From IMG/VR virus record IMGVR_UViG_3300017963_000228, positions 1 through 64,000 of that record: a DNA stretch of 64,000 nt. One strand, 5' to 3'. The stretch's first letter is position 1. Each line of letters opens with the position of its first letter. Made by a program: the position numbers and the translations under genes. The notes under the pieces were generated by a model. That model did not search any database. It had not been told where the DNA came from and saw only the letters and a program-made list of their open reading frames with translations. Shown here piece after piece: positions 13,371-60,722 of the stretch. Source of the DNA: a virus.

Positions 13371-14776
13371 TGGATAAATCTTTAAAAATTAAAGAAATTC
13401 ATGCTGGAAGTTTCCGTTGTGAAAACAATGTTACGGGGGCATTTGTAAAAAATATATTATCCTATAAAGAAAAAAGAAAATACTTTGATAAATCAATTGG
13501 AAAAGAAATAGTAAAAGATGTGACATTTGATTATGGAGCATCACGTTATGGATTATACTATTTTCCAAGTGGTCTTGTAGGATATGTAAAACGAAAAGGT
13601 CTTTTATTAAGAAGACAAACAGTGGAGATCATTCGATCACCAGATTCTTATGAACTACCCCGTAAATTAATGCCATCCCTACCGGGAATTGAATTTGAAC
13701 CATATCAAGCAAAGGTATTCCGCAAAATAGGTCCGAATAAAATGGGTATCATTGTCGGACCTACTGGAATGGGTAAATCAATTATATTAGGTGGCATTAT
13801 TGATAAATTATACTGTCCCAATACCCTTCTTATTGTACCAACCAAATCAATTGGTAAACAAATGTATGATTCTTTTAAGAATTGGTTTGGTGATCGTGTA
13901 GGTATGATTGGTGACGGTATTTATGATCAACGGGATATCACTATCTGTTTATTTCAATCCCTTAATAAATTCACAGTCTCCAGAAATAATATTCAGCTTA
14001 TCCTATGTGACGAAGTACATTTAGTTAATGAAACAATAAAAAAATTTCTTAATAAAAATGGAAAAAATATTTACTATCGGTATGGTGTTACAGCCACACC
14101 ACAAAAATTCAAACATAATTTGAAAAAAACGTTTAAAATGATGGGTTGCTTTGGCAATATACTAAGTGAAGTCACTGATAAAGAAGCATCTAAACGAGTT
14201 CTTCCTGTTAAGGTCAACATGGTAAGCTACTATTGTCACAGTCCTCAAGGAATTGATTACAAATCAGTTATGCGTGAGGATATTCTATACAGTAAGATAA
14301 GAAATAATAAACTATTAAAAGCAGCAAAATCTCTGGCTATTTCAAAAGGAATGACTGTTCTATATTTGGTAGATGAAACTAAACAGGCATTAATTGTTGA
14401 AAAATTAGCATATCAATTAAATCTCAATCCCTACGTTGTCCATGGAAAAATGGATAATAAAGAAATCAATTACATAAAAGAAAATTTAAATAATAGAAAA
14501 ATTAATTTATGTATAGCAACAAGAGTATTCAGTGTCGGAACAGACATTCCTAACGTTGATTGTATTGTGCTGGGATCTGTACGCAAATCTGAAATTGACA
14601 CTCTCCAAAAAATAGGGCGTGGAAGAAGACGTACCAAACATGAACATCTCTTACTCATTGATTGTGTCGATAAAGTAAGAGATAAAAAATTCAATAAATA
14701 CTTCTACGGATACTCCATGCAAAGAATGCAAATATACAGAGAGAAAGAATGGGAAATAAGAAAAGTAATTTTATAA
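13370..14776 (+). CDS. superfamily 2 helicase (UvsW-like)
   Basis: GPTGMGKS, DEVH, TAT, VGTDIP, QKIGRGRR. Confidence 0.9.
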   Translation: MDKSLKIKEIHAGSFRCENNVTGAFVKNILSYKEKRKYFDKSIGKEIVKDVTFDYGASRYGLYYFPSGLVGYVKRKGLLLRRQTVEIIRSPDSYELPRKLMPSLPGIEFEPYQAKVFRKIGPNKMGIIVGPTGMGKSIILGGIIDKLYCPNTLLIVPTKSIGKQMYDSFKNWFGDRVGMIGDGIYDQRDITICLFQSLNKFTVSRNNIQLILCDEVHLVNETIKKFLNKNGKNIYYRYGVTATPQKFKHNLKKTFKMMGCFGNILSEVTDKEASKRVLPVKVNMVSYYCHSPQGIDYKSVMREDILYSKIRNNKLLKAAKSLAISKGMTVLYLVDETKQALIVEKLAYQLNLNPYVVHGKMDNKEINYIKENLNNRKINLCIATRVFSVGTDIPNVDCIVLGSVRKSEIDTLQKIGRGRRRTKHEHLLLIDCVDKVRDKKFNKYFYGYSMQRMQIYREKEWEIRKVIL

Positions 14777-16228: not shown

Positions 16229-16523
16229 GTGGTGTTGGGGAATTGGTTGGAACAACTCTGGCATTGACATTAATCACAGCATTATTCTTTTCCAGTTTAT
16301 GACCGATTCCCCAAACCGTAAATGCACCACCAACACCCGCAATAATAAAACCAATAAATTCAAGCCATGGTTCCATATCTGGATAAGGTGCTAATTTAGA
16401 AGAACCAGAAATAGTCCCTCCAATCGCAACCATTATTGCACCAGCCTTTGTTTTCCATCCTGTCATTGCCGGTGGTGCCGGTGGTGCAGTATAAGTTTTT
16501 GTTACTTCAACTGCCTTTGTCAT
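16203..16523 (-). CDS. putative holin (two TM helices)
   Basis: GWKT followed by two hydrophobic segments and GIGHKLEK; last gene of the late operon. Alternative start at 16529. Confidence 0.6.
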   Translation of the reverse strand: MTKAVEVTKTYTAPPAPPAMTGWKTKAGAIMVAIGGTISGSSKLAPYPDMEPWLEFIGFIIAGVGGAFTVWGIGHKLEKNNAVINVNARVVPTNSPTPPNQAGVIR

Positions 16524-17359
16524 AACCATTCCCCTTTCTGAGTAAGAATTCTAAAAATACTACCATCCTTATACGAACTAACTTTAGTTGTAGAAATATG
16601 ACATGGCATAAAGTGATCGTGACGTTTACCATTAATCAAACCAATCAAACGATCATGGCCAAGTAATGCTCCAGCCAAATAGATAGGACCGCTATCTATT
16701 CCAATAAAAAATTTACATTTTCCTATTTCTTCAATCATACGTTTTAAATCTGGTTCTTCAAAACGTAGAGAATTTTTTTTCGTTGCAAGACAAAAATCAT
16801 CTGTTCCACGATCAGAACATTTGTACTCTTTGGAAAAACCGGGGCGCATGTGCATTTCAAATGGTTCAAAACCAGCGTCTTCAATTTCTTTCCATACTTT
16901 ATAAACAATTTCCTGCGGTACAAATTTATCAAGCATTCCAGTATGACCAAAGAAGTGAACACCCACTCTTTTTGAATCAGGATTAAATGTTTTATTGGTC
17001 ATCCTAAATGGTTTCCAGATAAAATCACGCATACCCATTTCATGAATAGCACACAAATATGGTTTTGCTGGCTCATTATGAAGCTCAATAGGATAATGAG
17101 AATCAATAGAATCAGGATAATGAACACGATAATGAATATCATATCGTGATCGTATATCTGTATCGTTTCCAACTATAATAATTTTGGGATCAATAAGATT
17201 AAATTGTCTCTTGGAACTGGAACCAAGAGTAACCTTTATTTTTGATTGACGACAAAATTCTTTATGAACAGGAAGATAATTTATAAGATCTCCCAAACCA
17301 TGTTCAAAAACGAATAATGCACCCTTGACTGACCGCTTAACCAACTCCATTGGTTTCAT
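16520..17359 (-). CDS. GT-B glycosyltransferase, GT9 / heptosyltransferase-like
   Basis: HGLGDLI near the N-terminus; FIGIDSGPIYLAGAL. Confidence 0.7.
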   Translation of the reverse strand: MKPMELVKRSVKGALFVFEHGLGDLINYLPVHKEFCRQSKIKVTLGSSSKRQFNLIDPKIIIVGNDTDIRSRYDIHYRVHYPDSIDSHYPIELHNEPAKPYLCAIHEMGMRDFIWKPFRMTNKTFNPDSKRVGVHFFGHTGMLDKFVPQEIVYKVWKEIEDAGFEPFEMHMRPGFSKEYKCSDRGTDDFCLATKKNSLRFEEPDLKRMIEEIGKCKFFIGIDSGPIYLAGALLGHDRLIGLINGKRHDHFMPCHISTTKVSSYKDGSIFRILTQKGEWL

Positions 17360-18162
17360 ACTTCCGTAGACCATGTTCCCCTCGCAGCAACAATGTTATA
17401 GATTTCATCAACTTTATCAGGAAAAGGAATCACATTATCAATATTCCCATCATAATCAATAAACAGAATTCCAGAAGAAGAAGTATCTTTTTCAACAAAA
17501 GCAATCCAATACCCACCATCATACGGGTCTTCTATCACACCACGAAAATAACAATTTGGATCAAGATGGAAAATATCATCGCCACAATGAAACAAACTAT
17601 GTCCTGATTCAAGGAAGCATAGTCTATCTTGAGAATTAAAAAAAATATTATTGGGATCTTCAATGCCAGAAAATACTACACGTTCATTTGATAAATCATA
17701 AATCCGTTTTTTCTCAAAACAGCTAATATACCACATATGACGATAAGCATATAAACAGTTTAATTTAACAGGACACTGATCTTTGCCTATTGTGTAATGG
17801 ATATCATCTTTAAAAGTACTAAAATTAACAGGATCATAATCAATAGATTCAATTGTTCTCGTTCCAGCAGAATCTACAAATAGTTTACCGGGAAAAATAG
17901 AAATAATGCTATTTATAAATTCACAATTAGTACATTGAAATATTTCTGTATTTTTAGTTATTGAATTTTTTACAAATAAAAAATCTTTCTTTTTATCCTT
18001 TCTTCTAAATGAAATAACGAGATCACTTCCAGAAAATGCTATTCCTCTACTAAATAATGTATCTTTTGGTAATAGAGAAATAAATTTACTATTGCCTTTT
18101 ACAGTATTAACAAACAGAAGATGACTTTTATGATGTTTCAGCGTAATCAACAATTTCATCAT
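17356..18162 (-). CDS. hypothetical beta-rich protein, possible propeller
   Basis: RGIAFS and FRGVIED blade-like motifs; coupled to both neighbours. Confidence 0.5.
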   Translation of the reverse strand: MMKLLITLKHHKSHLLFVNTVKGNSKFISLLPKDTLFSRGIAFSGSDLVISFRRKDKKKDFLFVKNSITKNTEIFQCTNCEFINSIISIFPGKLFVDSAGTRTIESIDYDPVNFSTFKDDIHYTIGKDQCPVKLNCLYAYRHMWYISCFEKKRIYDLSNERVVFSGIEDPNNIFFNSQDRLCFLESGHSLFHCGDDIFHLDPNCYFRGVIEDPYDGGYWIAFVEKDTSSSGILFIDYDGNIDNVIPFPDKVDEIYNIVAARGTWSTEV

Positions 18163-19166: not shown

Positions 19167-20522
19167 TCATACAATTATCATAGATATAGGTTTAACACTA
19201 CTATATGTATAAATACCCTGACGAATGGCATCCATATCTTCAGTGGTAATAGAAGTATTAAAAATAACAAGTTCATCTAAACATATATCAGCATAATCCG
19301 CGTCATCAACAGCAGAACCAATTTGAACCGCATTTGAATTTGCTACCAGATTAACATTAACATTTGGAATATAATTGCCTAAAAGACTATCCGCTGAATA
19401 ATCCCAAATTCTAATTTGCATATAATTAGATCCAGAATCATAAGAAGCAGAAATATGATACCATTTATCCTGTTCGATAGTTCCTGAAACAGAATATCCA
19501 TCATTATCAAGATACAATGTTAATTGTGGTGTAGAACTACGAATAATACCTAAAGAAAAAGCAGTTCTACCTTTAGAAAAAATAAGATGATCTTTATCCC
19601 AAGCAACAATCGTATTAAATTTTACCCAAACACAAATGGCAAAATCAAAATTACTCTGACCACTCTTAAATGGAAAATTAGAAGATAAATTCGCATCATC
19701 TATATACATATACTGACTATTAGTATCATCAAGATCAACTGCAAAATTTCCCTCTTTATGATCTCCAAAAAAAGCAGTTGGTGGTGATGCTGATAATGTT
19801 AGATCATTTGTTCCTTTTGAATCTTTACCAATTTCAAAATCCTCAAACTGGTAAACAGAAATACAATGTGGGTTCCGTGTGAATCTATTATTTCCCAATC
19901 TTGCTTCTTTTAAAATAGTATATCCAACCGCTTGTGAAATACCACCAGTAGATTTTAAAACAGAATATCCATTAGCTTGAGAAATACCACCAGTAGATTT
20001 TAAAACAGAATATCCATTAGCTTGAGAAATACCCATCATAGGTATAGCATCATCTGCTGCATAAAATATTCTTTTATAAGAACTATTGGAATAACTGCCA
20101 AATGGATCTGAGGGACCATCACTGTAAGTATCAACATTATATTTATTAATACCTGATGAATAACCTGAAGCATATACGTCTACAGTGGTATCAACGATAA
20201 TTCCTAACCAATAATAACCAGCAGATAAATTAACAGGGGATGAAAATGGAAGATTTATAATATTTGCAACATCAGAACCTATAACTTCATTTGTAACTGC
20301 AATTAAAGCATCTGGTACACCAGCATTGTCTGAATAAATAAATCCTTTAATTTTAACAGTTGGTACTGTTTGTCTAATTCCTAATAAAACTAAAGAATAA
20401 ATATCATCTACCGAAAGTAATTCATATCTACCAGCATATTTATTATTTGCTATTAATACAGTATTATACTGATATGCTATCGAATCATTTCCAAATATAT
20501 ATGGATAAATAGAAAGAGACAT
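19167..20522 (-). CDS. array partner B3: B domain + three strand repeats + LamG/ConA-like domain
   Basis: DTYSDGPSDPFG shared with B1/B2; ISQANGYSVLKS repeats; FAICVWVK..KWYHI..LDELVIFN LamG motifs; ends SMIIV. Confidence 0.7.
   Translation of the reverse strand: MSLSIYPYIFGNDSIAYQYNTVLIANNKYAGRYELLSVDDIYSLVLLGIRQTVPTVKIKGFIYSDNAGVPDALIAVTNEVIGSDVANIINLPFSSPVNLSAGYYWLGIIVDTTVDVYASGYSSGINKYNVDTYSDGPSDPFGSYSNSSYKRIFYAADDAIPMMGISQANGYSVLKSTGGISQANGYSVLKSTGGISQAVGYTILKEARLGNNRFTRNPHCISVYQFEDFEIGKDSKGTNDLTLSASPPTAFFGDHKEGNFAVDLDDTNSQYMYIDDANLSSNFPFKSGQSNFDFAICVWVKFNTIVAWDKDHLIFSKGRTAFSLGIIRSSTPQLTLYLDNDGYSVSGTIEQDKWYHISASYDSGSNYMQIRIWDYSADSLLGNYIPNVNVNLVANSNAVQIGSAVDDADYADICLDELVIFNTSITTEDMDAIRQGIYTYSSVKPISMIIV
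19936..20033. repeat. perfect 45-bp in-frame tandem repeat (2.2 copies)
   Basis: 19936-19980 equals 19981-20025, plus 8 further bp. Confidence 0.95.
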
Positions 20523-20545
20523 TTTAAATCCTTTTCAATTCTATT

Positions 20546-21535
20546 TTACGCAGTAGATTTGGATTTAAAAGCCAATTGAAGGGCATCTATTTCAACTGGA
20601 GTAAATTGACTTATTGTTTCTGGATTTTGATCATAAAAAACTTCATATTGATTCCACGTACCCTCTAATATAATTGTATCTCCCAAATGAACAGCACCAT
20701 TAGTTTTAATACCCATCTGCATACCAGTATCACCAGTACTATCTGTAGATCTGGCAATTATCTTAACTCCTTTACAAATAAAATTTCCTGCTGGCATACC
20801 TGTAAGATTAAATTGTACATCTTGTTCTACAACATTCGTATAAACTGTATCTGCATCATTTGCAATGATATCATCAATGTCCGTATAAGCACCTGTCCAT
20901 TGATTTGTATCTCCAGCAGCATTTGGAGCTAAAGTTTTTAAACTCATTAATCGTGTATCTTCATCAGCTACAATAATTTCTGATATAAAAGTTGACCAAT
21001 TATTATCCAATACACGTAACATTACTTGATCAAAATTGGTTGTTGTTCCTACACGAATATCTCCAGAATAAGTTAATAGTAAATGGCCATCTACATAAAA
21101 ACTAATAATTCCATTAGAACCATAGGTATCAATATGCAAATCATATTGAATACAATCTCCATTAAAAGTTTTAGAATTTTCTGAAACAAACCATGTAACT
21201 GTTCCATCTGAGGTTCTCTTACCTATTGACCAGTATTCATTAGTATCAAAACCAACACCAATAGCATCTCCTGTAACACTATTACATAGACTTATTGGAA
21301 AACAATCAACATCTATAGCAGCAATGCTTTGATGATACATAAACCAATGAAGCCAAATACCACTGCTTACGGGAGTAAAAGTATTAGAATAATAAGGACC
21401 ACCACCATCACCAAGTTGTATACCTCCGCGTGACATAGAAGGACGATAATAAGTGGAAGAATTTCCAAATTTAAGTGAAGCAACTGTGTTTTTCTTAAAA
21501 TCAATTGGTTCACCACCACACCATATTATACTCAT
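20546..21535 (-). CDS. array lectin-like protein A4 (putative virion adhesin)
   Basis: MSIIWCGGE..ISEIIVADEDTRLMSLKT..GIKTNG..NPET..EIDALQL; paralog of A1-A3. Confidence 0.7.
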   Translation of the reverse strand: MSIIWCGGEPIDFKKNTVASLKFGNSSTYYRPSMSRGGIQLGDGGGPYYSNTFTPVSSGIWLHWFMYHQSIAAIDVDCFPISLCNSVTGDAIGVGFDTNEYWSIGKRTSDGTVTWFVSENSKTFNGDCIQYDLHIDTYGSNGIISFYVDGHLLLTYSGDIRVGTTTNFDQVMLRVLDNNWSTFISEIIVADEDTRLMSLKTLAPNAAGDTNQWTGAYTDIDDIIANDADTVYTNVVEQDVQFNLTGMPAGNFICKGVKIIARSTDSTGDTGMQMGIKTNGAVHLGDTIILEGTWNQYEVFYDQNPETISQFTPVEIDALQLAFKSKSTA

Positions 21536-21564
21536 TTTATTCTCCTATATAAATATTGATTATG
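21506..21564. repeat. 59-bp perfect direct repeat, copy 1 (partner stop + RBS + first codons of A)
   Basis: Identical to 23122-23180. Confidence 0.95.
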
Positions 21565-22174
21565 TAATAATCATTGATACGGCTTTATTTTGATAGTTCA
21601 CTTCTTTTAATACGGCATAGTAAACAACCTGAGATACACCAACTGTTACTTCTGTTGATAAAACAGCATAATAAACAGCCTTAGAAGCATCAAGCGTTTC
21701 CCTAAATTGTGCGCCATAAATAAGAAGATGAAAAGTACCCCCAGTACTATAAGAACCAAATGGATCTGAGGGACCATCAGCATATGTATCAGCATTATAT
21801 GGATAGTCATCCTGATAATAATAATCAAACTCTAAACGTATCGTGGAATCAACAATAATCCCTAACCAATAATTTCCTGCGGTTAAATTAACTTGCGATG
21901 CAAATTTAAGAATATTATAAAAACCTTGAGACAAACCAATATGTTCCTCTGTTGTTGCCAACAAAGAATCTGGTGCGCCAGCATTATCAGAATAAATAAT
22001 TCCCTTAATTTTAACAGAAGGATAATCACCAGCACTATAAACATTTAAAACATCAATATAATTGTTTGTTCCTAAAGTATATGGAGAAACATATTTATAA
22101 TTAGCAGATATGTTACGATCATAAACTGTAGTGCCGGGAGTCCAATCACCAATTATTTGACTTGCAATTGCCAT
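21560..22174 (-). CDS. array partner B2
   Basis: VKIKGIIYSDNAG..YWLGIIVD..DGPSDPFG; two YYAVL strand repeats; ends SMIIT. Confidence 0.7.
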   Translation of the reverse strand: MAIASQIIGDWTPGTTVYDRNISANYKYVSPYTLGTNNYIDVLNVYSAGDYPSVKIKGIIYSDNAGAPDSLLATTEEHIGLSQGFYNILKFASQVNLTAGNYWLGIIVDSTIRLEFDYYYQDDYPYNADTYADGPSDPFGSYSTGGTFHLLIYGAQFRETLDASKAVYYAVLSTEVTVGVSQVVYYAVLKEVNYQNKAVSMIIT

Positions 22175-22188
22175 TATAAACCCCTATT

Positions 22189-23151
22189 TTAAGTAGTTGA
22201 ACGCGAAACAATAGCACCCTGCAAAGCATTCAATTCAGTAGTAGTAAAACGATTCATTGTATCAGGATTATAATGCCAAATTTCTTCTCCTAATTCCCAA
22301 ACACCACCCAATACTTTTGTATCTCCAAGGTATTGTGTACCATTAGTCTTAAAACCTATTTGCAAACCCATTCCACCAACACCATCTGTTACACGGTGAG
22401 CAGCTTTAAGAGCTTTACAAATAAAATTCCCTGATGGTATATCACTTAATTCACAATTATATGTTTTATCTGGTACATCTGTATAAATCGTATCATTATC
22501 ATTATATTCAGTTTCATCTATATTTGCATAGGTGCCATTCCATTCATTAACATCTCCATCAGCAACAGGTTTCATTGTTTTTAAACTCATTAAGCGAGTA
22601 TCTTCATCAGCAATAATTATTTCAGAAATAAAATGAGAACCATTTCCATAACCACGACAAAATGCTCTATTAAAATTACTTATACCTGAAATAGTTAAAT
22701 CACCCTCATAACGAATTATTTCATTACCACCAATATAAACAATAGCTACACCTGAAACTCCATAATCTACATAAAAATCAAGTTTATAAACAGTTGATAT
22801 TACTGTTACCGAACTTGATGTTTCTAAATCTGATCCCGTACCACCTTCAAATTTTCTAATAATATATGTATCTCCACGACGAAAAACACAAATTGAGTTT
22901 GAAAAATCTTTTCCAAATGTAAATCCCATAAGATAACCATCATAAGCTTCACCATTATGAAAATAACGATAGTGTATTGATCCCCATAATTCTGTATAAG
23001 TAGAAGAAAATTCTTGAGTATAATGTGTCGTTCTTATATCCAAAGCACATCTTGCAAAATCAGAACGATAATATATATCTGAAGTTTGTAAATTATAAAC
23101 ATTTGTTGGATCAAGATCTTGTGGTTCACCACCACACCATATTATACTCAT
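22189..23151 (-). CDS. array lectin-like protein A3
   Basis: MSIIWCGGE..ISEIIIADEDTRLMSLKT..ELNALQ. Confidence 0.7.
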   Translation of the reverse strand: MSIIWCGGEPQDLDPTNVYNLQTSDIYYRSDFARCALDIRTTHYTQEFSSTYTELWGSIHYRYFHNGEAYDGYLMGFTFGKDFSNSICVFRRGDTYIIRKFEGGTGSDLETSSSVTVISTVYKLDFYVDYGVSGVAIVYIGGNEIIRYEGDLTISGISNFNRAFCRGYGNGSHFISEIIIADEDTRLMSLKTMKPVADGDVNEWNGTYANIDETEYNDNDTIYTDVPDKTYNCELSDIPSGNFICKALKAAHRVTDGVGGMGLQIGFKTNGTQYLGDTKVLGGVWELGEEIWHYNPDTMNRFTTTELNALQGAIVSRSTT

Positions 23152-23180
23152 TTTATTCTCCTATATAAATATTGATTATG
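23122..23180. repeat. 59-bp perfect direct repeat, copy 2
   Basis: Identical to 21506-21564. Confidence 0.95.
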
Positions 23181-23847
23181 CAATTATTATAGATGTAGCC
23201 TGATTTCTTTTTACTAATTCTTCTAAAACAGCATAGGATACAACTTTGGGAACTAAAAGAGATTCGGGTGGTGCCAAAACTACTTGAGACATTGTTTTCG
23301 GAACTATAAGAGATTGTGGTTGTCTGTTTACTGAGGTTGCTGATGCGATATTTAATTCCGTAAAATTACCAGTTAAATATCCAGTGGCATAAGCAGTAAA
23401 AGAAACATAAGTATCTATTGTGCCTGTACCAAAAGGGTCGCTGGGTCCATCTGAATATGTATCAGCATTAGTTGATGGATATTGACCTGCTACTCTATAA
23501 TAAAAACCTCTACAATTAATATTAGAATCACATATAAAACCAACATAATAATCTTCCAAAGGAAATGACTGATTAACAACAAATTCTGTTAATCCTGAAG
23601 GATTTGTTACTTCAGAAGAAGTCCAAACTAAATTTCCCGGTTGATCACTTCCTGCATAATCATATAATAAAGCTTTAACATTACCTGTTTGATTATCATA
23701 AAATTGAATCCAAATTGATTCAATATAAAATTGGCCAAAACCAAGTGAATAATCTAAATGCCTTTCAAAAAAACTAACTCTTTTATTATTTGCATCTACA
23801 GAAATAGTAGATGTATTATTTTGTTTTCCAAGTATTATAGAAGACAT
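23176..23847 (-). CDS. array partner B1
   Basis: NADTYSDGPSDPFG; SLIVPKTMSQVVL / SLLVPKVVSYAVL repeats; ends SIIIA. Confidence 0.7.
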   Translation of the reverse strand: MSSIILGKQNNTSTISVDANNKRVSFFERHLDYSLGFGQFYIESIWIQFYDNQTGNVKALLYDYAGSDQPGNLVWTSSEVTNPSGLTEFVVNQSFPLEDYYVGFICDSNINCRGFYYRVAGQYPSTNADTYSDGPSDPFGTGTIDTYVSFTAYATGYLTGNFTELNIASATSVNRQPQSLIVPKTMSQVVLAPPESLLVPKVVSYAVLEELVKRNQATSIIIA

Positions 23848-23862
23848 AAATAGTACTTTCTT

Positions 23863-24879
23863 TTATTGTGTTTTAGATCTAAAAACAATTTGAAAAGCAT
23901 CTAATTCAGACCATGTAAAAGGATTGGACGTTTCTGGATTTACTAAAAATACTTCATTACCATTGATCCAATCACCTAAAAAATCTTGAGTAGAACCAAG
24001 GTGTATAACTCCATTGGTTTTAATACCAGTTTGCAAACCAATATTACCACTATTTCCATTAATGGCACGAAAATTAATTTTTAAACCAACACAATTAAGA
24101 CCAATGGTATTATATTCACGATCAAAAGAATCAGTATTTAAAATTATATCTTCTTCTGCTGTATCTGTTCCAACAGCATTTCCATCATCATTTAATTCTT
24201 CTGGAACAGAATATAAAACTGAAGAATCACCATCCCATTCAAAAGTATCAACACTCTCAGGCTCATGAGATCTTAAATACATTAAACGAGTATCTTCATC
24301 AGCAATAACTACTTCAGAAACAAACAAACTATATATACCTGAAGCATTATAAGCAAAAAACTGATCTAAAGAAGTTTGACTTAGTACAGTTAAATCTCCA
24401 GTATATTCTCCATCTAATTTACCATCAATATAATATTTTACATTTCCATTATTTGTATCATTATAATTTGTAATTTGAATATCAATATTAACTCTATGAA
24501 ATCGATTATGTCTATAAAGATTTGTCGCACTATTTATTAATGTAGTTACTGTTGTACCATCATATTTTACTAAATTAAAACGTTCATCACCAGCCATTAC
24601 ACCAATAAAGGCATCGGTTCCACTTTTAATCAAACCAACACGTCCCATTGGTTGTTGTTCCATCCCTGCCACAAATTTTAACCAAATAGATGTTACTGCT
24701 GGACTAAGAATATCTGCTGATGTTATATACCCACCTTCAGTTAAATCCATAGAACCGCGTACAAATTCAGAACGGCGTGTGTCTGTAACTCCAGTAGAAA
24801 ATAAACTATTTTTACCAATTAAATTAAAACCAGTAACATTAAAATCAGCTAACTCTGTTCCCCACCATAAAATAGACAT
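23863..24879 (-). CDS. array lectin-like protein A2
   Basis: VSEVVIADEDTRLM..GIKTNGVIHLGS..NPETSN..ELDAFQ. Confidence 0.7.
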   Translation of the reverse strand: MSILWWGTELADFNVTGFNLIGKNSLFSTGVTDTRRSEFVRGSMDLTEGGYITSADILSPAVTSIWLKFVAGMEQQPMGRVGLIKSGTDAFIGVMAGDERFNLVKYDGTTVTTLINSATNLYRHNRFHRVNIDIQITNYNDTNNGNVKYYIDGKLDGEYTGDLTVLSQTSLDQFFAYNASGIYSLFVSEVVIADEDTRLMYLRSHEPESVDTFEWDGDSSVLYSVPEELNDDGNAVGTDTAEEDIILNTDSFDREYNTIGLNCVGLKINFRAINGNSGNIGLQTGIKTNGVIHLGSTQDFLGDWINGNEVFLVNPETSNPFTWSELDAFQIVFRSKTQ

Positions 24880-24901
24880 TTTAAAAAATTCCTCTATAAA
24901 A

Positions 24902-25897
24902 TTATACAGGTGTTTTACTTCTAATAGTTAATTGAAGTGCATCTATTTCAGCCGGAGTAAAACGATTAGATGTTTCTGGATTAACTTGATATAATACTGA
25001 ATAATTAAAATAGTAACCATCCAAATTTTCAACACTGCCAAGATGTATAACTCCATTGGTTTTAATACCAACCTGTAAACTAATTCCACCGGAAACACCA
25101 CCATCGGCAGCATAACAATTTATTTTAAGTGCTTTACAAATAAACTCTCCTTCTGGTGGCATTCCTGTTACAGCACATTGAAAATCCTGATCAACTGTAT
25201 CTGTATGAATAATCTCAAGTACATCTACATTTATATCATCAACGTAATCATAACTGTTATTCCATTGATTCACATCTCCAGCAGCATTTGGAACTAAAGT
25301 TTTAAGACTCATTAAACGAGTATCTTCATCAGCAATAATTATTTCTGAAAATTCTGGTTGATAAGTATTACCATAATAATAATATGGAAATATATGTATA
25401 TTTGTTAAATCCGTAACACCAGAAACGGTAACATCACCAATATAATTTGATGCCAAAACACCATTTATATAAAAACGAATAAAACCAGAAGAACTATAAT
25501 TAACATTAACATCTATTTTATAAGGAATACCGGGAGTAGATTGTCCAATAAATGCCGGTGGTGCTACAGGTGTATTCAAATCTGTATGTGCAGAACCATC
25601 CCATGTTGTAAAATACACCGCATAATTTTCATCAATACGTACAGTTAAACCCTTCTCAGAAGAATCTTCAAAACGGAAAATAGTAACACCATCTTGTTGA
25701 GTAGATTTAGAATATTGACAACTAAACCAAAATGTATTTGTAGATAATGGAATATGAATATAAGAACTACTGCTATTCATCGCCAAAGAACATCTGGCAA
25801 AATCTGATCTTACAGCATTGCCCGGACTTTCAAATTGTATTAATCCTATAGCATCTTCAATATCTTCTAATTCACCACCAGCAAATAAAATAGTCAT
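24902..25897 (-). CDS. array lectin-like protein A1
   Basis: MTILFAGGE..SEIIIADEDTRLMSLKT..EIDALQL. Confidence 0.7.
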   Translation of the reverse strand: MTILFAGGELEDIEDAIGLIQFESPGNAVRSDFARCSLAMNSSSSYIHIPLSTNTFWFSCQYSKSTQQDGVTIFRFEDSSEKGLTVRIDENYAVYFTTWDGSAHTDLNTPVAPPAFIGQSTPGIPYKIDVNVNYSSSGFIRFYINGVLASNYIGDVTVSGVTDLTNIHIFPYYYYGNTYQPEFSEIIIADEDTRLMSLKTLVPNAAGDVNQWNNSYDYVDDINVDVLEIIHTDTVDQDFQCAVTGMPPEGEFICKALKINCYAADGGVSGGISLQVGIKTNGVIHLGSVENLDGYYFNYSVLYQVNPETSNRFTPAEIDALQLTIRSKTPV

Positions 25898-25914
25898 AAT
25901 AAATACCTTTCTAT

Positions 25915-26664
25915 TTACTTACGATTACCTTTCAAGGTAATTCCAACATCAGCCAAAGTCGCATCAGCCGATGCCGGGGCAGTAATGGAAACCACATCTC
26001 CATCATTCAAATCAACGGCATTATTAAAGGTAAAACTACCTGAAGTCTGACCTGTCAAAATAGTAGCTGTTCCTTTAGAAACCCCATTCACCTTTATATC
26101 AAAATCAGCCTGTGCCGATGGTGATGTTCCACATTTTATTTGACTATAAAAAAGTTTTTTAGGCAGTTCAATATCTTCTCCACCAACTACCACATGAAAA
26201 AGAATTACCTGTTCATCTTCAAATGTTCCCGGCGCACTAACACCGATTACATAAAGATTACTTAATTTGGAAGGTTTTGCTGGAGTTTCTTCAGCATCAA
26301 TTACACCTGTTGCACCATTCCAATAAACAGAACCAACAGGAACCTGATTTGCCAAATTCCAAATGGTTTGAGATGCTGAAAGAACTCCATCAATATCGTA
26401 AGAAAAATACCATTGACCCGCTACGTCATCAATCACTACAAAATCTTCTTCCGTTTTTTCATAACGCACACCAAATGCATAAAAAATAAATGAATCACCA
26501 ACAGGGGTAATAGAAAATTTACGGGTAGGATCATCAAAGGCAAGAGTACTGGCAGCAGGATCAACAAAACCAGTGGAATCATTTACTTCATTATAATTAT
26601 TAATTACATTTGTTATTTCAGTTCCACCACCACCACCGCCCAGCATATTAATAGAAGTTGGCAT
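25915..26664 (-). CDS. virion/tail-associated beta-sandwich protein
   Basis: AAGGAG RBS; beta-rich; C-terminal ..DGDVVSITAP..ATLADVGITL domain. Confidence 0.6.
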   Translation of the reverse strand: MPTSINMLGGGGGGTEITNVINNYNEVNDSTGFVDPAASTLAFDDPTRKFSITPVGDSFIFYAFGVRYEKTEEDFVVIDDVAGQWYFSYDIDGVLSASQTIWNLANQVPVGSVYWNGATGVIDAEETPAKPSKLSNLYVIGVSAPGTFEDEQVILFHVVVGGEDIELPKKLFYSQIKCGTSPSAQADFDIKVNGVSKGTATILTGQTSGSFTFNNAVDLNDGDVVSITAPASADATLADVGITLKGNRK

Positions 26665-26678
26665 TTTGAATCTCCTTT
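26655..26678. repeat. 24-bp direct repeat (RBS + MPT start), copy 1
   Basis: aagttggcattttgaatctccttt, identical to 28371-28394. Confidence 0.9.
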
Positions 26679-26685
26679 TAAATAA

Positions 26686-26889
26686 TTAAATAATAACAGT
26701 CAATAAAGGTTTTACCCCTGAAGATACTTTACTCAATACTTCTATACATACATTAGATAAATTTACATCTAAATTGGTATCACCAGAACGCATAATTTCA
26801 ATAAATGATTGTGAAAGACGTGCATCTAAATCGGGATCACCAGAACGTAAAGTTTCAATAATTGTTTGAGAAACATATGCATCTGCCAT
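26686..26889 (-). CDS. minimal array partner C (67 aa: three strand repeats + C-terminal strand)
   Basis: VSQTIIETLRSGD / LSQSFIEIMRSGD / LSNVCIEVLS; ends KPLLTVII. Confidence 0.7.
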   Translation of the reverse strand: MADAYVSQTIIETLRSGDPDLDARLSQSFIEIMRSGDTNLDVNLSNVCIEVLSKVSSGVKPLLTVII

Positions 26890-26902
26890 TTAAAACACCC
26901 CT

Positions 26903-27940
26903 TTATGTTGTTACCTTTACGCCAGCTTCAAATGCATTGATATCTGTTTCTTCCCATACACTGGAATCATCAGGATTTAACTCCCAAACCTCTCCAAAAA
27001 ATTCATGTTCTACTGATAAAATAGTATTAGATGAATAAGTATAATTAGTTCCATTAATACGAAATACTCCAGCTAATGTTCTTGCTGCCGCATCTGTTTT
27101 TCTTGCTTGATAATTTATTTTTATTCCATAAATAGTTTTTGTATAAGTAGTAACAGGAAGATCTCCAAATGCGTATAATTCAATTTCATTCAAAGCATCC
27201 AGAGCTACATAATCAGTATCACCATTTGCATCTAATTCATCCACACATTCATAATTAGATCCTGCTGATGCTGTTCCATCATTTTGATTACCATTAGCCG
27301 TGGGATAAATAGCATCAACACGAACATTTCCAAGAAAATCATTATTTTCTGAACCAGAATTATCACAAATATATATATCATCATACCGAGCTGCTCCACG
27401 ACCAGAAAATCGTATTCTATTTATATATTCATTTGATCCGGTATTAAGTGTATCTATTCCACTAAGCAAATATAAAGGCACACCATTTACTCTTGCCTGT
27501 ATATATCCTGATGTATTACTCAATTTCATTTTTACTTCAAAAAAATTCCATTTTGATACATCAAATAAATTAGAATCAGAAGTATAAATTGTAGGATCAT
27601 ATGCACTTCCTTTTTTATAACTAACACTACCAGCCGGACCACTAAAAATTACAGTAGCTTGTTCATTATCATCATTATTACCAAAAGATATAGTCCAACT
27701 ATATTCAGTGGTACCTCTTTTACATGCTATTCCAAATATAACTTCTTCATAATTAGAAGAAAAATATTTTACTAAATTAAAAGCAGTAGCAATAGAAAGA
27801 TAGGCACATCTTCCAGAACCAAATCGTGTATCATTTGAATAATCAAAATAACTCGCTGACAAACCACCATAATCATTAAAAAATGGATGAAGCATATTAT
27901 TAGTTTGATTTTCAAATCCTGTGAAATCAATTAAAGACAT
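26903..27940 (-). CDS. divergent array lectin-like protein A0
   Basis: ConA-like N-domain (WNFFEVK..YDDIYICD); C-domain ends NPDD..W..DINAFEAGVKV, matching the architecture of A1-A4. Confidence 0.65.
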   Translation of the reverse strand: MSLIDFTGFENQTNNMLHPFFNDYGGLSASYFDYSNDTRFGSGRCAYLSIATAFNLVKYFSSNYEEVIFGIACKRGTTEYSWTISFGNNDDNEQATVIFSGPAGSVSYKKGSAYDPTIYTSDSNLFDVSKWNFFEVKMKLSNTSGYIQARVNGVPLYLLSGIDTLNTGSNEYINRIRFSGRGAARYDDIYICDNSGSENNDFLGNVRVDAIYPTANGNQNDGTASAGSNYECVDELDANGDTDYVALDALNEIELYAFGDLPVTTYTKTIYGIKINYQARKTDAAARTLAGVFRINGTNYTYSSNTILSVEHEFFGEVWELNPDDSSVWEETDINAFEAGVKVTT

Positions 27941-28464: not shown

Positions 28465-29379
28465 TTAATTAGGACATAAATCCATAAGTTCCTGATATAT
28501 AAGAACTTCACCAGCAATCATTTCTGGTGTTATCATTGTCATGCATGGTGGAAATCGTTGTTCATCATTTATTTTGTAACATTCTCCAATTTGAGTTTTC
28601 CAACATCCTTCATTTTCACAACAATCTAACTGACCAACACTACTCAAATAAGAGTGACCATTATACTTCTCCCAAGATGGTTCTTCTCTACCTCCAGCTA
28701 TTACAACACAAGGTTTATCAAATGCTGCGGCTAAATGCATTTGCATACTAATCGGTCCAATCATGCCATCGGCATGATAAGCCAATGCAAAATATTCACG
28801 AAGATCATTAGTACGACCAATAAAATTATGAACACCATCCAATCGGGGATGAAGATGGTGTGAATGTCCTGTTTGTATAAGATGGATTCTACCATTTGTT
28901 TTCTCATTAATTATATTAACCACCTTTTGATACAGAGAAGGTGGATATTGTTTAAGAGGGATATCTGATTTTATACCAGCATTAATTAACCAATAAGGTT
29001 TTTTAATTCCATATTTACACAAAAAATGTTTTTCACTTTTTTCTGCTGGATGCAACTCAACATGTGGAAATGGTGAAGATTTATGAATCTTAATTTTCAA
29101 TATATTTTCTATCATCGTAATAAAACAGTCGGAAAAATGCATACCACTTCTACGAAACTCTTTTAAATACGGACCATAATCTAAATTATAATGGGGAACT
29201 TTTGGATCATTCTTTGGAATATAAGTTATATATGGATTTAAGAAAAATACTTCAGGGTAACAAGTAATAACATCAGTTTCATAAACAAAAGGATGTGTCT
29301 TATGAAGATCACGCAACGCGACAGTCAGCATTAAAAGATCACCGGGAGCTTGCATTTGTTGGAAGATAATTTTATTCAA
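28465..29379 (-). CDS. GT9 (ADP-heptose:LPS heptosyltransferase-like) glycosyltransferase
   Basis: APGDLLML, NFIGRT.DLR, SMQMHLAAAFDKPCVVIAGGRE, Cys-rich C-terminus. Confidence 0.8.
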   Translation of the reverse strand: MNKIIFQQMQAPGDLLMLTVALRDLHKTHPFVYETDVITCYPEVFFLNPYITYIPKNDPKVPHYNLDYGPYLKEFRRSGMHFSDCFITMIENILKIKIHKSSPFPHVELHPAEKSEKHFLCKYGIKKPYWLINAGIKSDIPLKQYPPSLYQKVVNIINEKTNGRIHLIQTGHSHHLHPRLDGVHNFIGRTNDLREYFALAYHADGMIGPISMQMHLAAAFDKPCVVIAGGREEPSWEKYNGHSYLSSVGQLDCCENEGCWKTQIGECYKINDEQRFPPCMTMITPEMIAGEVLIYQELMDLCPN

Positions 29380-29403: not shown

Positions 29404-30615
29404 TTACGCAACACGAATATATTTGTACATTCCTGATATCGGTTGACCTGAAAAATGTGGAAGTTGAAAATGAGTAGATCGATCATAAGGAGTACCAGTA
29501 GATCTATAAATTCCTCTACGCTCATTATAATAGGTAAAAAACACTACCCAATCATCAGTATTATGACAAGCAGCAGTCTGACCGCCAATGTCAATTGGAA
29601 AGTTTTGCCAATTATATCCATCTTTACTAATCAAAATACCATTTCCAGAACTATTAAACATAATAAAATGCTCACCAGTATGAATCATATCAAGAGGGCC
29701 AAAACTACCTCCTTCAATAAAAGCGGGTGGATAATAATGTGGAATCCAATTTTCTTGGGTTATTGGATTCGCATCTTCATTAATCCAATAACGATGACAA
29801 CCTGTATATGAATAAAGACCAAACCATTTTCCATCCAAATATCGTATAACATCTGGCCAAGATTGGGAAACATCATAAAGCTGACCTTCAAATTTATCAG
29901 ATCGTGATGACCAATTTATTCCATCAGACGTAGTGTAAAAATACAAACCATCATAAGCACCAGAAGCTTGATCAGCAGTTAATATAACTGTATAAGAACC
30001 ACTTGAACCTAATGTATATACCTCCTCACCACTATAAGGTATAGAATAAGAAGTAAAAGAAGTCCCACTGGTAGAATAAAGATAATTTCCGGTATCATCA
30101 TAATGAAAAACAAGAAAAGCTGAACCATCGTAAGTCATCCAACGCCAATTAGCAGAAGTAGGTAAATTAACTTGAGTCCAAGTTGCTCCATAATTATCTG
30201 AATAAGCCGCAATGCTGGAAGCAAATTGTACTGCTACAAAACGAGAACCATTATTAGCAAGACAATACCATGTTCCTGACGATGGTAAATTTGTATTTGT
30301 ACTCCATGTTTCACCACCATCATCAGAATGCCAAACCCAATTACCAGCACCGATTATTACAATGTAATCTCCAATATTACTTATTGCTCTTATATAATTT
30401 GTATTATTAGCATCAACTGTAATGTATTCCCAACTATTCGTTCCCCATATTTTAGGATGCAATTCTACATCTGGAGCAGCCACATAATCAGGGTAATTTG
30501 ATTGAGATAGTATAGAACCATCGCATTTTAACCAATTGGAATTTGGGGGACCAACAGCATCAAGCATAAATCCAATTGGAAATTCATTTGATTGAACATT
30601 TAGTAAATCAGCCAT
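29404..30615 (-). CDS. tail fibre: split collar domain with a BNR/Asp-box beta-propeller insert
   Basis: FPIG..NWLKCDGSILSQSNYP; SDDGGETW, SDNYGATW and SDGINW repeats; FQLP..YIRVA. Confidence 0.75.
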   Translation of the reverse strand: MADLLNVQSNEFPIGFMLDAVGPPNSNWLKCDGSILSQSNYPDYVAAPDVELHPKIWGTNSWEYITVDANNTNYIRAISNIGDYIVIIGAGNWVWHSDDGGETWSTNTNLPSSGTWYCLANNGSRFVAVQFASSIAAYSDNYGATWTQVNLPTSANWRWMTYDGSAFLVFHYDDTGNYLYSTSGTSFTSYSIPYSGEEVYTLGSSGSYTVILTADQASGAYDGLYFYTTSDGINWSSRSDKFEGQLYDVSQSWPDVIRYLDGKWFGLYSYTGCHRYWINEDANPITQENWIPHYYPPAFIEGGSFGPLDMIHTGEHFIMFNSSGNGILISKDGYNWQNFPIDIGGQTAACHNTDDWVVFFTYYNERRGIYRSTGTPYDRSTHFQLPHFSGQPISGMYKYIRVA

Positions 30616-31763
30616 TATTTTACCCTTATGTATTTTTTAAGTTTAGTTATGTGTGCATAATCCTGAATTGCTTCAGAACTTGGTAACTGAAAATAAGTAG
30701 ATTCATCATAATAGAAATCTTTTTCAGCAATACATATGGTATCTTGATATCCATAAAGAATTAATTTTTCAGTGGTAGAATTATAAATAATATCGTAAAA
30801 TTCACCATCATCTAATACATTAATTGGTTCCCATACTTTTCCTTGATCCATAGAATATGCAAAATTATAAGTACCCCAACCCACAATAAAATACATATTA
30901 TCTACTTCACGTATACGATAAGGAGAAAATTGATATTCATTAACACTGCGATAATTATTTTTTTCCATCACACCGCACTTTTGGTATTCCCAAACTAATC
31001 CATCCGTAGAAAAACCAATTTCCCCTGTCTCTCCAGCACTTACAAATGTGCTATCAATAACACTAACATTACGACACGTTGTTGGAGGAATAATTTTATA
31101 ATCCCATGTCACACCACTATCTTCTGAATAAGCTAAATCACCACCAGAAGATAAAGCAAATACAATATCGGCATTTGCTCCCATGGCATAATACGTATCA
31201 GATTTACAAGTTCCCACTGTAGCCCAAGTGATTCCATCAGTAGAACGAATCACTGTTCCTGAATTATAACCCACTGCATAAAAATACGTTCCATCCCAAA
31301 CAACATCATACCAAGTGCCAGATACATTAAGTGTTCTTTGAGTCCATGTAACACCATCTGAAGAAGTAACAGCTATAGCAGAACTCTTTTGTATTCCTAA
31401 AAAAATAGAACCATTCCAAATAACATTATAACAATAATTTGTATGTGCGGCTGTTCCTTCCGTCCAATTCTCTCCATCCGTAGAATAAAAAGCCTGATTA
31501 GAAGTTAAAGCCACATAATTCGTACCATTATAAGCAATACAAAACGGTCCCTCATAACTCCCTTCTTCAAAAGCTTGCTGAACTTGCCATCTACCAAAAC
31601 GCAATGGATGTGGATTATCCATTAAAGAATAAAGAACAGGGTAATCAGCCTGTGCTAAAATAGAACCATCCAAAGGCAACCAGTTTTCATTCGGTGGCGC
31701 ATACGCTTCAGCTATTGATCCAATAGGAAACACTTCTGATGATTGTATAGGATGAAGTAACAT
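30615..31763 (-). CDS. tail fibre paralog: split collar + Asp-box propeller
   Basis: FPIG..NWLPLDGSILAQADYP; STDG.NW / SSDGVTW repeats; FQLP..YIRVK. Confidence 0.75.
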   Translation of the reverse strand: MLLHPIQSSEVFPIGSIAEAYAPPNENWLPLDGSILAQADYPVLYSLMDNPHPLRFGRWQVQQAFEEGSYEGPFCIAYNGTNYVALTSNQAFYSTDGENWTEGTAAHTNYCYNVIWNGSIFLGIQKSSAIAVTSSDGVTWTQRTLNVSGTWYDVVWDGTYFYAVGYNSGTVIRSTDGITWATVGTCKSDTYYAMGANADIVFALSSGGDLAYSEDSGVTWDYKIIPPTTCRNVSVIDSTFVSAGETGEIGFSTDGLVWEYQKCGVMEKNNYRSVNEYQFSPYRIREVDNMYFIVGWGTYNFAYSMDQGKVWEPINVLDDGEFYDIIYNSTTEKLILYGYQDTICIAEKDFYYDESTYFQLPSSEAIQDYAHITKLKKYIRVK

Positions 31764-59480: not shown

Positions 59481-60722
59481 TTAACTAACGTCATCCAGCA
59501 TCACAAATGCTTGCGGTACTGCTGCCTGTCCATCCAACCGACCAGAGCAACGGAGGGAAGTACGGTTATGACGGAAACGATAATGACGCGAAGAATCCAT
59601 GCTGAAATCCTGACGGAAACCAATATAATACCACTGCCATGCACCCAGCACCACATCACCAGCAGTACCCAATGCAGGAACTTTACCATCAGCCAGCATA
59701 GCCGGTTTACCAAGAATGGTCATGTCATAACCATCCTTCAGATTGGCATAGGATTCCTGAAGAACAAGTTCATCGGAAGTTGCGGAGACTTTCTGACCGC
59801 GAAGGGCAGCACGTCCGGTCTTTGTAATAAACCAAACTGCGGCGGCATCAAACATGGCAGGAAGACGTGCATCCATGTTGAGAATATCGTCAACAACTAC
59901 CGTACTGGCAGTTTGACGATTGACAGTGAGAATATTGGGATCATTGAGAATACCCAGCGGTTTCTTTCCACCACTGCCATTGAGGAATTCTTTATCCGTA
60001 TACCAGTACCATGCTGACCGGAAAATACGGGTAAGATAATTCATGAGGTTAATAACAGAATCGTCCAACAGAGTATTGGTCAGTTCAGTGTAACCGGCCA
60101 ATTCATGGACGATCATTTCAACCAAACCGAATTCCGGTTGCGTTTCCTGCTTCTCGCCACCTTCCTCAGTCCACTCAAAAGATACACCAGCAAAATGATC
60201 AAAATCTTCCGATTGCACATCGGGATTCTGCATCAGTTTGGGGAAAGCCAGTTTTTCACCGGCCATCGGCCATACAGTGGCGCGGGACCATACCAGCGTG
60301 TCTTCCATATCGTACATGATCATCAATGCACGAAATTCTTCCGGTACGAGATAACCACCATCGTCATCCACTGCGGAAGAAAGCAGTTTGGAAGTCTGTC
60401 CAGTTTTGAGATACTTGGAGAAGTCGGTAGCCCACTGTTTTACTTCATCGGAAACCATCAGCCATGGATTCTGACGGTTGCGAAGATTGATGATTGATCC
60501 CTGTTTGGTGGTCATCATATGACCATCCATGGAAACAAAAGGCATACGTTGAACAAGCTGAGTACCAGAATGCGGCTGAAAAGGCGTCTGCACATCATTC
60601 TGGAGATCCTTTACCATATCCTGAATGGTTTCTTTCACCAGATTGCTGAAATCATCGCCACCCATAACATCCGAAACTTGGCCCTTCAACAATTCAATGA
60701 GTTCATCCTTGGTCAATTTCAT
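59481..60722 (-). CDS. major capsid protein (HK97 fold)
   Basis: DGGYLVPEE, WTEEG, LLDDS, GSG.KKPLGI, ILGKP, R..GRLDG. Confidence 0.95.
   Translation of the reverse strand: MKLTKDELIELLKGQVSDVMGGDDFSNLVKETIQDMVKDLQNDVQTPFQPHSGTQLVQRMPFVSMDGHMMTTKQGSIINLRNRQNPWLMVSDEVKQWATDFSKYLKTGQTSKLLSSAVDDDGGYLVPEEFRALMIMYDMEDTLVWSRATVWPMAGEKLAFPKLMQNPDVQSEDFDHFAGVSFEWTEEGGEKQETQPEFGLVEMIVHELAGYTELTNTLLDDSVINLMNYLTRIFRSAWYWYTDKEFLNGSGGKKPLGILNDPNILTVNRQTASTVVVDDILNMDARLPAMFDAAAVWFITKTGRAALRGQKVSATSDELVLQESYANLKDGYDMTILGKPAMLADGKVPALGTAGDVVLGAWQWYYIGFRQDFSMDSSRHYRFRHNRTSLRCSGRLDGQAAVPQAFVMLDDVS

Follow-up and report, generated by a model that had tools for sequence, protein, structure and literature searches.

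What role could a block of genes at the end of a phage tail module play, in which five members of one uncharacterised protein kind are interspersed with genes for short tandem repeats? The question is raised by IMG/VR record IMGVR_UViG_3300017963_000228, a linear sequence of 88,662 bases (estimated 82% complete, G+C content approximately 32%) from an uncultured, siphovirus-like marine phage, of which the first 64 kilobases (kb) were analysed (the window). The gene block, here called the array, occupies positions 19167-27940, entirely on the minus strand, downstream of the tail-tip genes and at the end of the tail genes. Read 5' to 3' on that strand it consists of A1, P1, T, A2, A3, P2, A4, P3, A5 and P4, where A denotes the shared protein kind, P the repeat-bearing partners and T a short tail-fibre-like protein. 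Comparison of genes and domains across related loci leads us to regard the array, with modest confidence, as a plug-in adhesin display for the tail tip, in which the partners would form the scaffold and the A proteins the cargo.

A list of open reading frames (ORFs) bears out, in coordinates and lengths, the nine genes described in an earlier, sequence-only reading of the window: five A genes of 320 to 345 amino acids (A1, 345, 26903-27940; A2, 331, 24902-25897; A3, 338, 23863-24879; A4, 320, 22189-23151; A5, 329, 20546-21535) and four partners of 67 (P1, 26686-26889), 223 (P2, 23176-23847), 204 (P3, 21560-22174) and 451 amino acids (P4, 19167-20522). Each partner starts 14 to 24 nucleotides (nt) after an A stop codon, directly downstream as that reading had placed it. 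A2 is followed by A3 with no partner between them, and T (249 amino acids, 25915-26664), a match to phrog_7049 ('tail fiber'), is a sixth gene type inside the array.

The strand motifs previously quoted for the partners (VSQTIIETL and ISQANGYSVL among them) and their hydrophobic C-terminal ends are present, but the repeat period proposed with them, about 12 residues, has to be corrected: a unit measures 15 to 19 residues and is made of a strand of about 10 residues and a proline/glycine-rich linker. There are two classes of repeat. Class 1, carried by P2-P4, reads S-K/Q, three residues, Y/F, a small residue, V and L. Class 2, found in P1 and in gp102 of phage phiCbK, reads S/T-Q, three or four residues, E and then a hydrophobic residue, and takes the form S-Q/N...E-hydrophobic with a period of 19 in P1. 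The copy number of two to three given earlier is right for P1 (approximately 26734-26877) and P4 (approximately 19908-20042), with three repeats each; in P2 (approximately 23224-23304) and P3 (approximately 21608-21688) two repeats are clear, and a third, degenerate slot shows in the alignment. P1 indeed consists of its three 19-residue repeats and a hydrophobic tail (approximately 26689-26709) and nothing else. The tails of P2, P3 and P4 lie at approximately 23179-23202, 21563-21586 and 19170-19193. P2-P4 also share an N-terminal domain of about 150 residues, which was missing from the earlier description.

The association of A genes with repeat ORFs was evaluated in related loci. A scan of IMG/VR with an alignment of 46 A sequences gave 49 loci and cultured phages were added by tblastn, resulting in 52 sources (51 loci, designated by L numbers, and the window) with 5,243 ORFs of at least 40 amino acids, which were searched with an A profile and an A1-type profile. 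An ORF was scored as tandem if it held at least two motif matches spaced 14 to 20 residues apart. Among 54 unique A-gene runs with room downstream, 39 have a tandem-repeat ORF immediately after them (42 of 60 in the raw count), so A and partner genes co-occur in other phages as well; seen from the repeats, 39 of the 47 tandem-motif ORFs start at -7 to +24 nt from a same-strand A stop. This pattern is far beyond chance. The repeats in the ORFs counted after A are tandem units of 14 to 21 residues. A cruder count gave 29 of 59 genes after A compared with 3 of 905 control genes (Fisher, 1e-35). A looser, non-tandem regular expression was rejected as a measure, since it also matched 38 of the 905 controls, mostly long proteins. 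Searched the other way round, starting from the repeats, IMG/VR yielded nine stretches that match a DNA pattern for two class-1 repeats, and all nine lie on contigs already retrieved via A.

The eight tandem-motif ORFs outside this spacing are the distal tail protein (Dit) of Brevundimonas phage Strzyga, itself directly after an A gene, two partners just upstream (L044) or 319 nt upstream (L029) of A, a partner that comes two genes after A (L003), an ORF that is itself an A protein, and three ORFs with an A gene some 3 kb downstream of them (L003, L008 and L048). Neither megablast of the whole array nor tblastn of P3 against phages gave a match, and a related-locus search with an alignment headed by the divergent A1 gave no confirmed locus. 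A scan of genome contigs found one locus only, in Mesorhizobium, which says little because one narrow pattern was used.

Both the class and the number of the repeats follow the A genes. Class-2 tandems were found for 6 of 8 runs with an A1-type gene and for 1 of the 34 runs whose genes are all A-type (Fisher, 3.6e-5; 5.7e-5 without duplicates), and the two misses, Strzyga and L039, have class-2-like repeats by eye that the expression did not catch. Partners that follow one A1-type and one A-type gene carry both classes (three of each in L013, approximately three and six in the 460-residue partner of Brevundimonas phage Fanboy). In single-A runs, partners have two repeats (16 runs) or three (14 runs), and once each four, five and six; in multi-A runs the regular expressions counted 2, 3, 4, 4, 6 and 14, two of these being undercounts by eye. 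The more A genes a run has, the more repeats its partner tends to carry (Spearman 0.41, p = 0.01; Mann-Whitney, p = 0.007). This is clearest in L014, whose partner comes after six genes of the A1 type and one of the A type and has three repeats of class 1 and 12 or more of class 2; the total of at least 15 is a lower bound, since the contig end cuts the partner. L013 further encodes, after two additional A1-type genes, a protein of 160 amino acids (13441-13923) with an apparent third kind of repeat of about 17 residues, which the expressions do not score.

In several phages the repeats are fused to baseplate proteins. They lie N-terminal to DUF2460 in Strzyga, L011 and L017, a domain that we take to be the family of the distal tail protein g12 of the gene transfer agent (GTA) RcGTA. 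The protein g12 is identified as Dit in PMC7296036. 'Tetraselmis viridis virus S20' has the repeats on the N-terminal side of a hub protein (Gp84_N, 1e-37; BR0599, 1e-20), and in L025 they precede Big_2 domains and GP46. S20 (L064, NC_020840.1) bears a green alga as its host label, yet it is classified in the Caudoviricetes and has a GTA-like tail tip (DUF2460 Dit and hub); the algal label looks doubtful.

Partners without an anchor domain carry hydrophobic tails. A possible receptor for these tails is suggested by T, whose C-terminal domain of about 110 residues occurs in 15 of the 52 sources, at the end of proteins of 174 to 1,102 amino acids. A T-domain gene lies directly upstream of the A run in 11 unique modules, and an uncharged hydrophobic tail was present in all 11 partners with a T-domain gene before the A run compared with 10 of 25 others (Fisher, 7e-4). 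This association makes the T-domain fibre a candidate receptor for the partner tail.

The same pair of genes is found in cultured phages. In phiCbK, a partner of 69 amino acids with three class-2 repeats and a tail (gp102) and an A1-type protein (gp103) lie between the tail protein gp101 and the endolysin gp104, as numbered in PMC3556154. Further pairs are present in Brevundimonas phages Strzyga and Fanboy, Loktanella phage pCB2051-A, Mesorhizobium phage Cp1R7A-A1, 'Tetraselmis viridis virus S20' and the N4-like Dinoroseobacter phage DS-1410Ws-06. All lie at the end of the tail module and show the same two families and the same repeat classes as the window; in Strzyga and S20 the repeats belong to the Dit or hub protein. 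The order of the genes is not constant: in phiCbK and DS-1410Ws-06 the partner is upstream of A. The relatives span siphophages with a DUF2460 Dit, a GP46-type baseplate and N4-like podophages. The cultured pairs are all annotated as 'hypothetical protein' or with an unrelated label and none is characterised; no paper on the A family, the repeats or the function of phiCbK gp102 and gp103 was found in open PMC and bioRxiv.

What kind of protein is A? A2-A5 match phrog_6368 over its full length (positions 1-327 of 328; E 4e-28 to 4e-17) and A1, of a divergent A1-type subfamily, matches phrog_2448 over positions 22-334 of 335 (E 3e-31); both are uncharacterised phage protein families. At E<=1e-3, a profile of the five A proteins matched 15,312 cluster representatives among 1.84 billion proteins; at E<=1e-10 it matched 7,367. 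A division into a variable N-terminal and a conserved C-terminal domain, as proposed before, holds moderately for A2-A5 (23-33% identity in the N part, 36-51% in the C part) but not for A1, which is 15-24% identical to the others in both parts. The ConA/LamG label given to the N-domain was not confirmed by Pfam, with no family at E<=1 in any of the five proteins, and it remains a lead only. Behind the label are two weak leads, a PDB sequence match to the jelly roll of a PL7 alginate lyase (E 0.28) and an ESM Atlas feature neighbour of A5 (score 0.94) in which 77% of members have Laminin_G_3. The ESM Atlas neighbours of A5 are nearly all viral. An A3 profile run against all PDB chain sequences gave two chance-level matches only (E 0.28 and 0.29), and A as an enzyme of the alginate-lyase type, with its single match at E 0.28, was set aside.

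The partners are more heterogeneous outside their repeats. Residues 268-428 of P4 (approximately 19239-19721) match Pfam Laminin_G_3 (PF13385; E 9e-11, 42.5 bits against a cut-off of 27.6), a domain present in P4 only; P2 has only a below-cutoff FlaF_Ig-like match, and P1 and P3 match no Pfam family at E<=1. An assignment of the N-domain, in P3, to DUF4082 is an ESM Atlas lead only. Just 10 relatives of P3 were found, and a partner profile had no real match among PDB sequences. The N-domain also occurs outside partners: in an A homolog of 483 amino acids (P0140) it is inserted into the A C-part (...ADTYSDGP..., as in P2-P4) and is therefore a mobile module of its own. In other phages, minimal partners of 47 to 82 amino acids consist, like P1, of repeats and a short uncharged hydrophobic C-terminus, while others have Ig-like, F5/8-type-C, glycine-rich or Laminin_G_3 domains, and in many the repeats are N-terminal, ahead of Ig-like or lectin domains. 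A role of the repeats as glycosylation or lipidation sites was set aside, as no feature supported it.

Taken together, co-occurrence, class match, count scaling, baseplate fusions and tails on anchorless partners fit a multivalent scaffold that is anchored by its terminal strand and displays interchangeable lectin-like proteins; on this comparative ground the broader idea of the sequence-only reading is strongly supported. As we picture it, each A protein would combine a more variable N half, probably a ConA-like binding domain, with a better conserved, beta-rich C half of about 135 residues (approximately residues 196-329 in A5), and each partner repeat of 15 to 19 residues would be a docking site for the conserved C half of one A protein. 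Docking would be coded by class, A1-type proteins binding S/T-Q...E-hydrophobic repeats (P1) and A-type proteins binding S-K/Q...Y-x-V-L repeats (P2-P4), and the number of repeats would set valency. The uncharged hydrophobic C-terminal strand would fix the scaffold to the virion, possibly on the T-domain fibre of the array; in other phages the repeats are themselves part of a Dit, hub or baseplate wedge protein. If chain-like fibres are taken as a guide, A and repeat would meet by beta-sheet augmentation at the edge of a complete fold rather than by the supply of a missing core strand.

The last point departs from the central claim of the sequence-only reading, in which the A C-domain was an incomplete beta-sandwich, unstable alone, that receives its missing core strand from a partner repeat in the manner of pilus donor-strand complementation. 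A common stop point is indeed shared by every A protein and almost all relatives: the motifs EIDALQ, ELDAFQ, ELNALQ and DINAFE lie 8 to 11 residues before the stop, as had been noticed, and approximately 137 of the best 150 of the 15,312 family matches end at most 5 residues from the match end. The partner repeats also look like amphipathic beta-strands, and the pairing statistics fit a missing strand as well as they fit edge augmentation. However, the ESM Atlas monomer model of A5 is a confident prediction (predicted TM-score, 0.84; predicted local distance difference test, 0.81), the hydrophobic pattern of the C-part, judged by eye, suggests about eight strand-like segments, the count of a complete jelly roll, and A homologs with no detectable partner exist. 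Homologs in which the A C-domain continues into such a strand were looked for in 17 relatives, picked from the best 150 for N- or C-terminal overhangs, and none has a strand repeat after the xALQ motif; among their nine C-terminal extensions, eight are Ser/Thr-rich or of low complexity, while that of P0223 runs into a hydrophobic stretch similar to the tail of a partner. No A5 relatives of 577-2000 amino acids turned up when longer forms were sought, which is weak evidence. The '(T/S)Q..VEV' strand that had been ascribed to single-chain relatives does exist, but it belongs to separate partners such as phiCbK gp102. An incomplete A fold is not favoured, and we hold it to be distinctly unlikely. 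A fusion of another kind is seen in L019 (9027-9938 and 9935-10717), where three class-1 repeats are joined N-terminally to an A module and one repeat precedes an A C-part fragment; as the contig contains ambiguous bases, this may be an assembly fault.

The repeats might instead be an element of the partner itself, for example a short beta-structured shaft or an oligomerisation segment of a small fibre. A would then be another protein of this appendage, with a receptor-binding or accessory role, and would not dock on them. Periodic strand-turn units with proline/glycine linkers resemble fibre-shaft repeats, such as those in the shafts of adenovirus and reovirus fibres, and the N-terminal position of the repeats before Ig-like or lectin domains in many partners is that of a proximal fibre part. 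Two or three repeats would however make a very short shaft and minimal partners would be headless fibres, and the tracking of upstream A gene number and subfamily by repeat number would be left unexplained; we regard this explanation as unlikely. A partner directly downstream of its cargo gene also occupies the usual place of a fibre chaperone, like the assembly proteins Tfa of lambda and gp38 of T4, which are encoded just downstream of fibre genes, and many partners are small. Partners could then bind A transiently via the repeats and need not stay in the virion. This is difficult to reconcile with repeats fused to permanent baseplate proteins in at least five lineages and with partners that have lectin or Ig domains of their own, and no Pfam family of tail fibre assembly chaperones (Caudo_TAP, for example) was matched in P1-P4, which renders a chaperone role quite improbable. 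Very improbable, finally, is a module that is made late and acts outside the virion, on the infected cell surface or beyond, for instance as a secreted adhesin. It would agree with signal peptides in 7 of the 17 inspected relatives and, weakly, with phiCbK gp102 and gp103 having gone undetected in virions in a survey that found only eight proteins, but the A proteins of the window have no signal peptide, the array lies inside the tail gene block, and the Dit, hub and GP46 fusions tie the repeats to the baseplate. Shaft, chaperone and non-virion explanations all fit count scaling or baseplate fusions less well than the scaffold does.

Several observations weigh against the scaffold reading itself. 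No partner lies directly downstream in 15 of the 54 A runs. Nine of these have a repeat ORF that is adjacent upstream, one or two genes away, fused or ambiguous, and one (L036) has a two-repeat segment under a looser rule only; in the other five (L046, L047, L049, L050 and L051), which have the most distant A proteins (69-105 bits), none is detectable in the locus. Adjacent genes are co-inherited and the loci are related to one another, so that the Fisher and rank tests, which count each locus as independent, overstate this independence, and the scaling of repeat number comes from six multi-A runs only. Loktanella phage pCB2051-A joins an A-type protein with class-2 repeats, and in the window A2 and A3 share one partner, P2, with only two clear repeats. 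The signal peptides (in P0195, P0199, P0207, P0212, P0218, P0080 and P0223), placed right before the conserved start I-L-W-x-G-G-E, hint at non-virion uses of some A homologs. In the phiCbK study, gp102 and gp103 are not among the virion proteins identified by mass spectrometry of gel bands (PMC3556154); their absence says little, because only eight proteins were found and even the head filament was missed.

How does the proposed scaffold compare with known systems? The closest solved precedent for docking of subunits on a rope is the chain-like fibre of podophages, which was reportedly described by Zheng et al. 2023 (J Mol Biol 435:168258) for GP4 (PDB 8JOU) and by Pang et al. 2024 (Structure) for VP1. 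In phages GP4, VP1 and A1002, a rope binds 5 to 11 fibre dimers, each via an augmented beta-sheet. GP4 encodes this rope as a protein of its own, whereas in A1002, where two subunit types share one rope, it belongs to the nozzle, a core tail protein (PMC13730344). The array would be alike in its tandem docking scaffold, with two to three repeats per partner in the window and at least 15 in relatives; in the occurrence of free partners next to Dit, hub and GP46 fusions, corresponding to separate rope and nozzle domain; and in the two repeat classes on one partner. In contrast, there is no sequence relation: A and partner profiles hit nothing real in PDB sequences, and among all PDB chain sequences the A3 profile did not match GP4 gp80, VP1 gp11 or A1002 gp40. 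The subunits of chain-like fibres are dimeric and have 140 to 171 amino acids, compared with 320 to 345 and an extra N-terminal domain in A, and they serve podophages with attachment at the nozzle, whereas the contact predicted here would be in a siphovirus-like phage.

Less close parallels exist in other systems. Lactococcal phages of the TP901-1/Tuc2009 type, with their BppU/BppL (and BppA) peripheral baseplate, hold receptor-binding proteins non-covalently on a scaffold, and are similar to our proposal in having a multivalent adhesion device on a scaffold anchored to the Dit ring. That scaffold, however, is helical and trimeric instead of a string of short strand repeats, no Pfam or PHROG family match to BppU/BppL was found here, and the hosts of the known examples are Gram-positive. 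Each subunit of a chaperone-usher pilus is missing its final strand, which an extension of the neighbouring subunit, of identical type, donates. The likeness lies in a short strand of one chain joining the sheet of another subunit; here, the strands follow one another on a scaffold that is a distinct protein, and an incomplete fold of A is not indicated. Cellulosomes likewise display interchangeable cargo on repeated docking units with type-specific pairing, but their repeated units are whole cohesin domains and the cargo carries a calcium-binding helical dockerin tag, whereas here the repeated units would be peptides of about 17 residues and the folded domain would be on the cargo. No Cohesin or Dockerin_1 Pfam domain was found in A1-A5 or P1-P4.

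The array closes a late operon on the minus strand that runs from the major capsid protein (59481-60722) through a tape measure-sized protein of 1,831 amino acids, a tail assembly protein (phrog_778), a J-like protein (38592-40844) and a Phage-tail_3 protein of 1,585 amino acids to several small genes and then the array. Two tandem proteins of 403 and 382 amino acids (29404-30615 and 30615-31763), with weak, below-cutoff N-terminal matches to Phage Tail Collar and BNR-like hints, are probably further fibres of the same tail tip. GT9 (heptosyltransferase)-like genes flank the array on both sides, at 28465-29379 (Pfam Glyco_transf_9, E 1.6e-7, above cut-off) and at 16520-17374 (E 0.007, below cut-off), and the closest relative, L003, also has both. 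Long Thr/Ser runs terminate several A homologs and neighbouring proteins in other phages; with the GT9-like genes, they raise the possibility of virion glycosylation. The array DNA was found nearly whole in two metagenome runs from two studies, of sediment (2018) and seawater (2021), either of which may be the source; no RNA run was listed among the sequencing runs with array DNA.

The array DNA also bears marks of rearrangement. Two partner-to-A junctions (21497-21590 and 23113-23206) are 86% identical over 94 nt, from the last codons of the partner across the spacer into the first codons of the following A gene, although the genes have otherwise diverged; this block is likely a recombination joint. 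The P4 repeats (19908-20042) form a 45-base-pair tandem at the DNA level, copies 2 and 3 being 87% and 73% identical to copy 1, which suggests a recent gain of a putative docking unit. Both features fit cassette exchange and a recent change in valency.

More tentatively, and as a generalisation from comparative sequence data that we find somewhat doubtful, thousands of tailed phages of all three tail types, phiCbK included, may share a class-coded docking system based on peptide tags of about 17 residues on a scaffold, distal tail protein, hub or wedge. The tags would capture the A beta-domain, their number and class would set how many and which binding modules the tail tip has, and the hydrophobic C-terminal strand would serve as a second tag, by which free scaffolds attach to a T-domain fibre. 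The idea is directly testable at the bench, because the pair is present in phiCbK and other cultured phages of non-pathogenic Caulobacterales. Docking, if true, would give a function to a very large unannotated phage family (15,312 cluster representatives at E<=1e-3) and would carry the principle of rope and subunit, known to date from three podophages only, over to siphophages and other phages. It would also account for how phages increase and trade their receptor-binding modules while leaving the baseplate as it is, through added or exchanged short peptide tags and cassettes.

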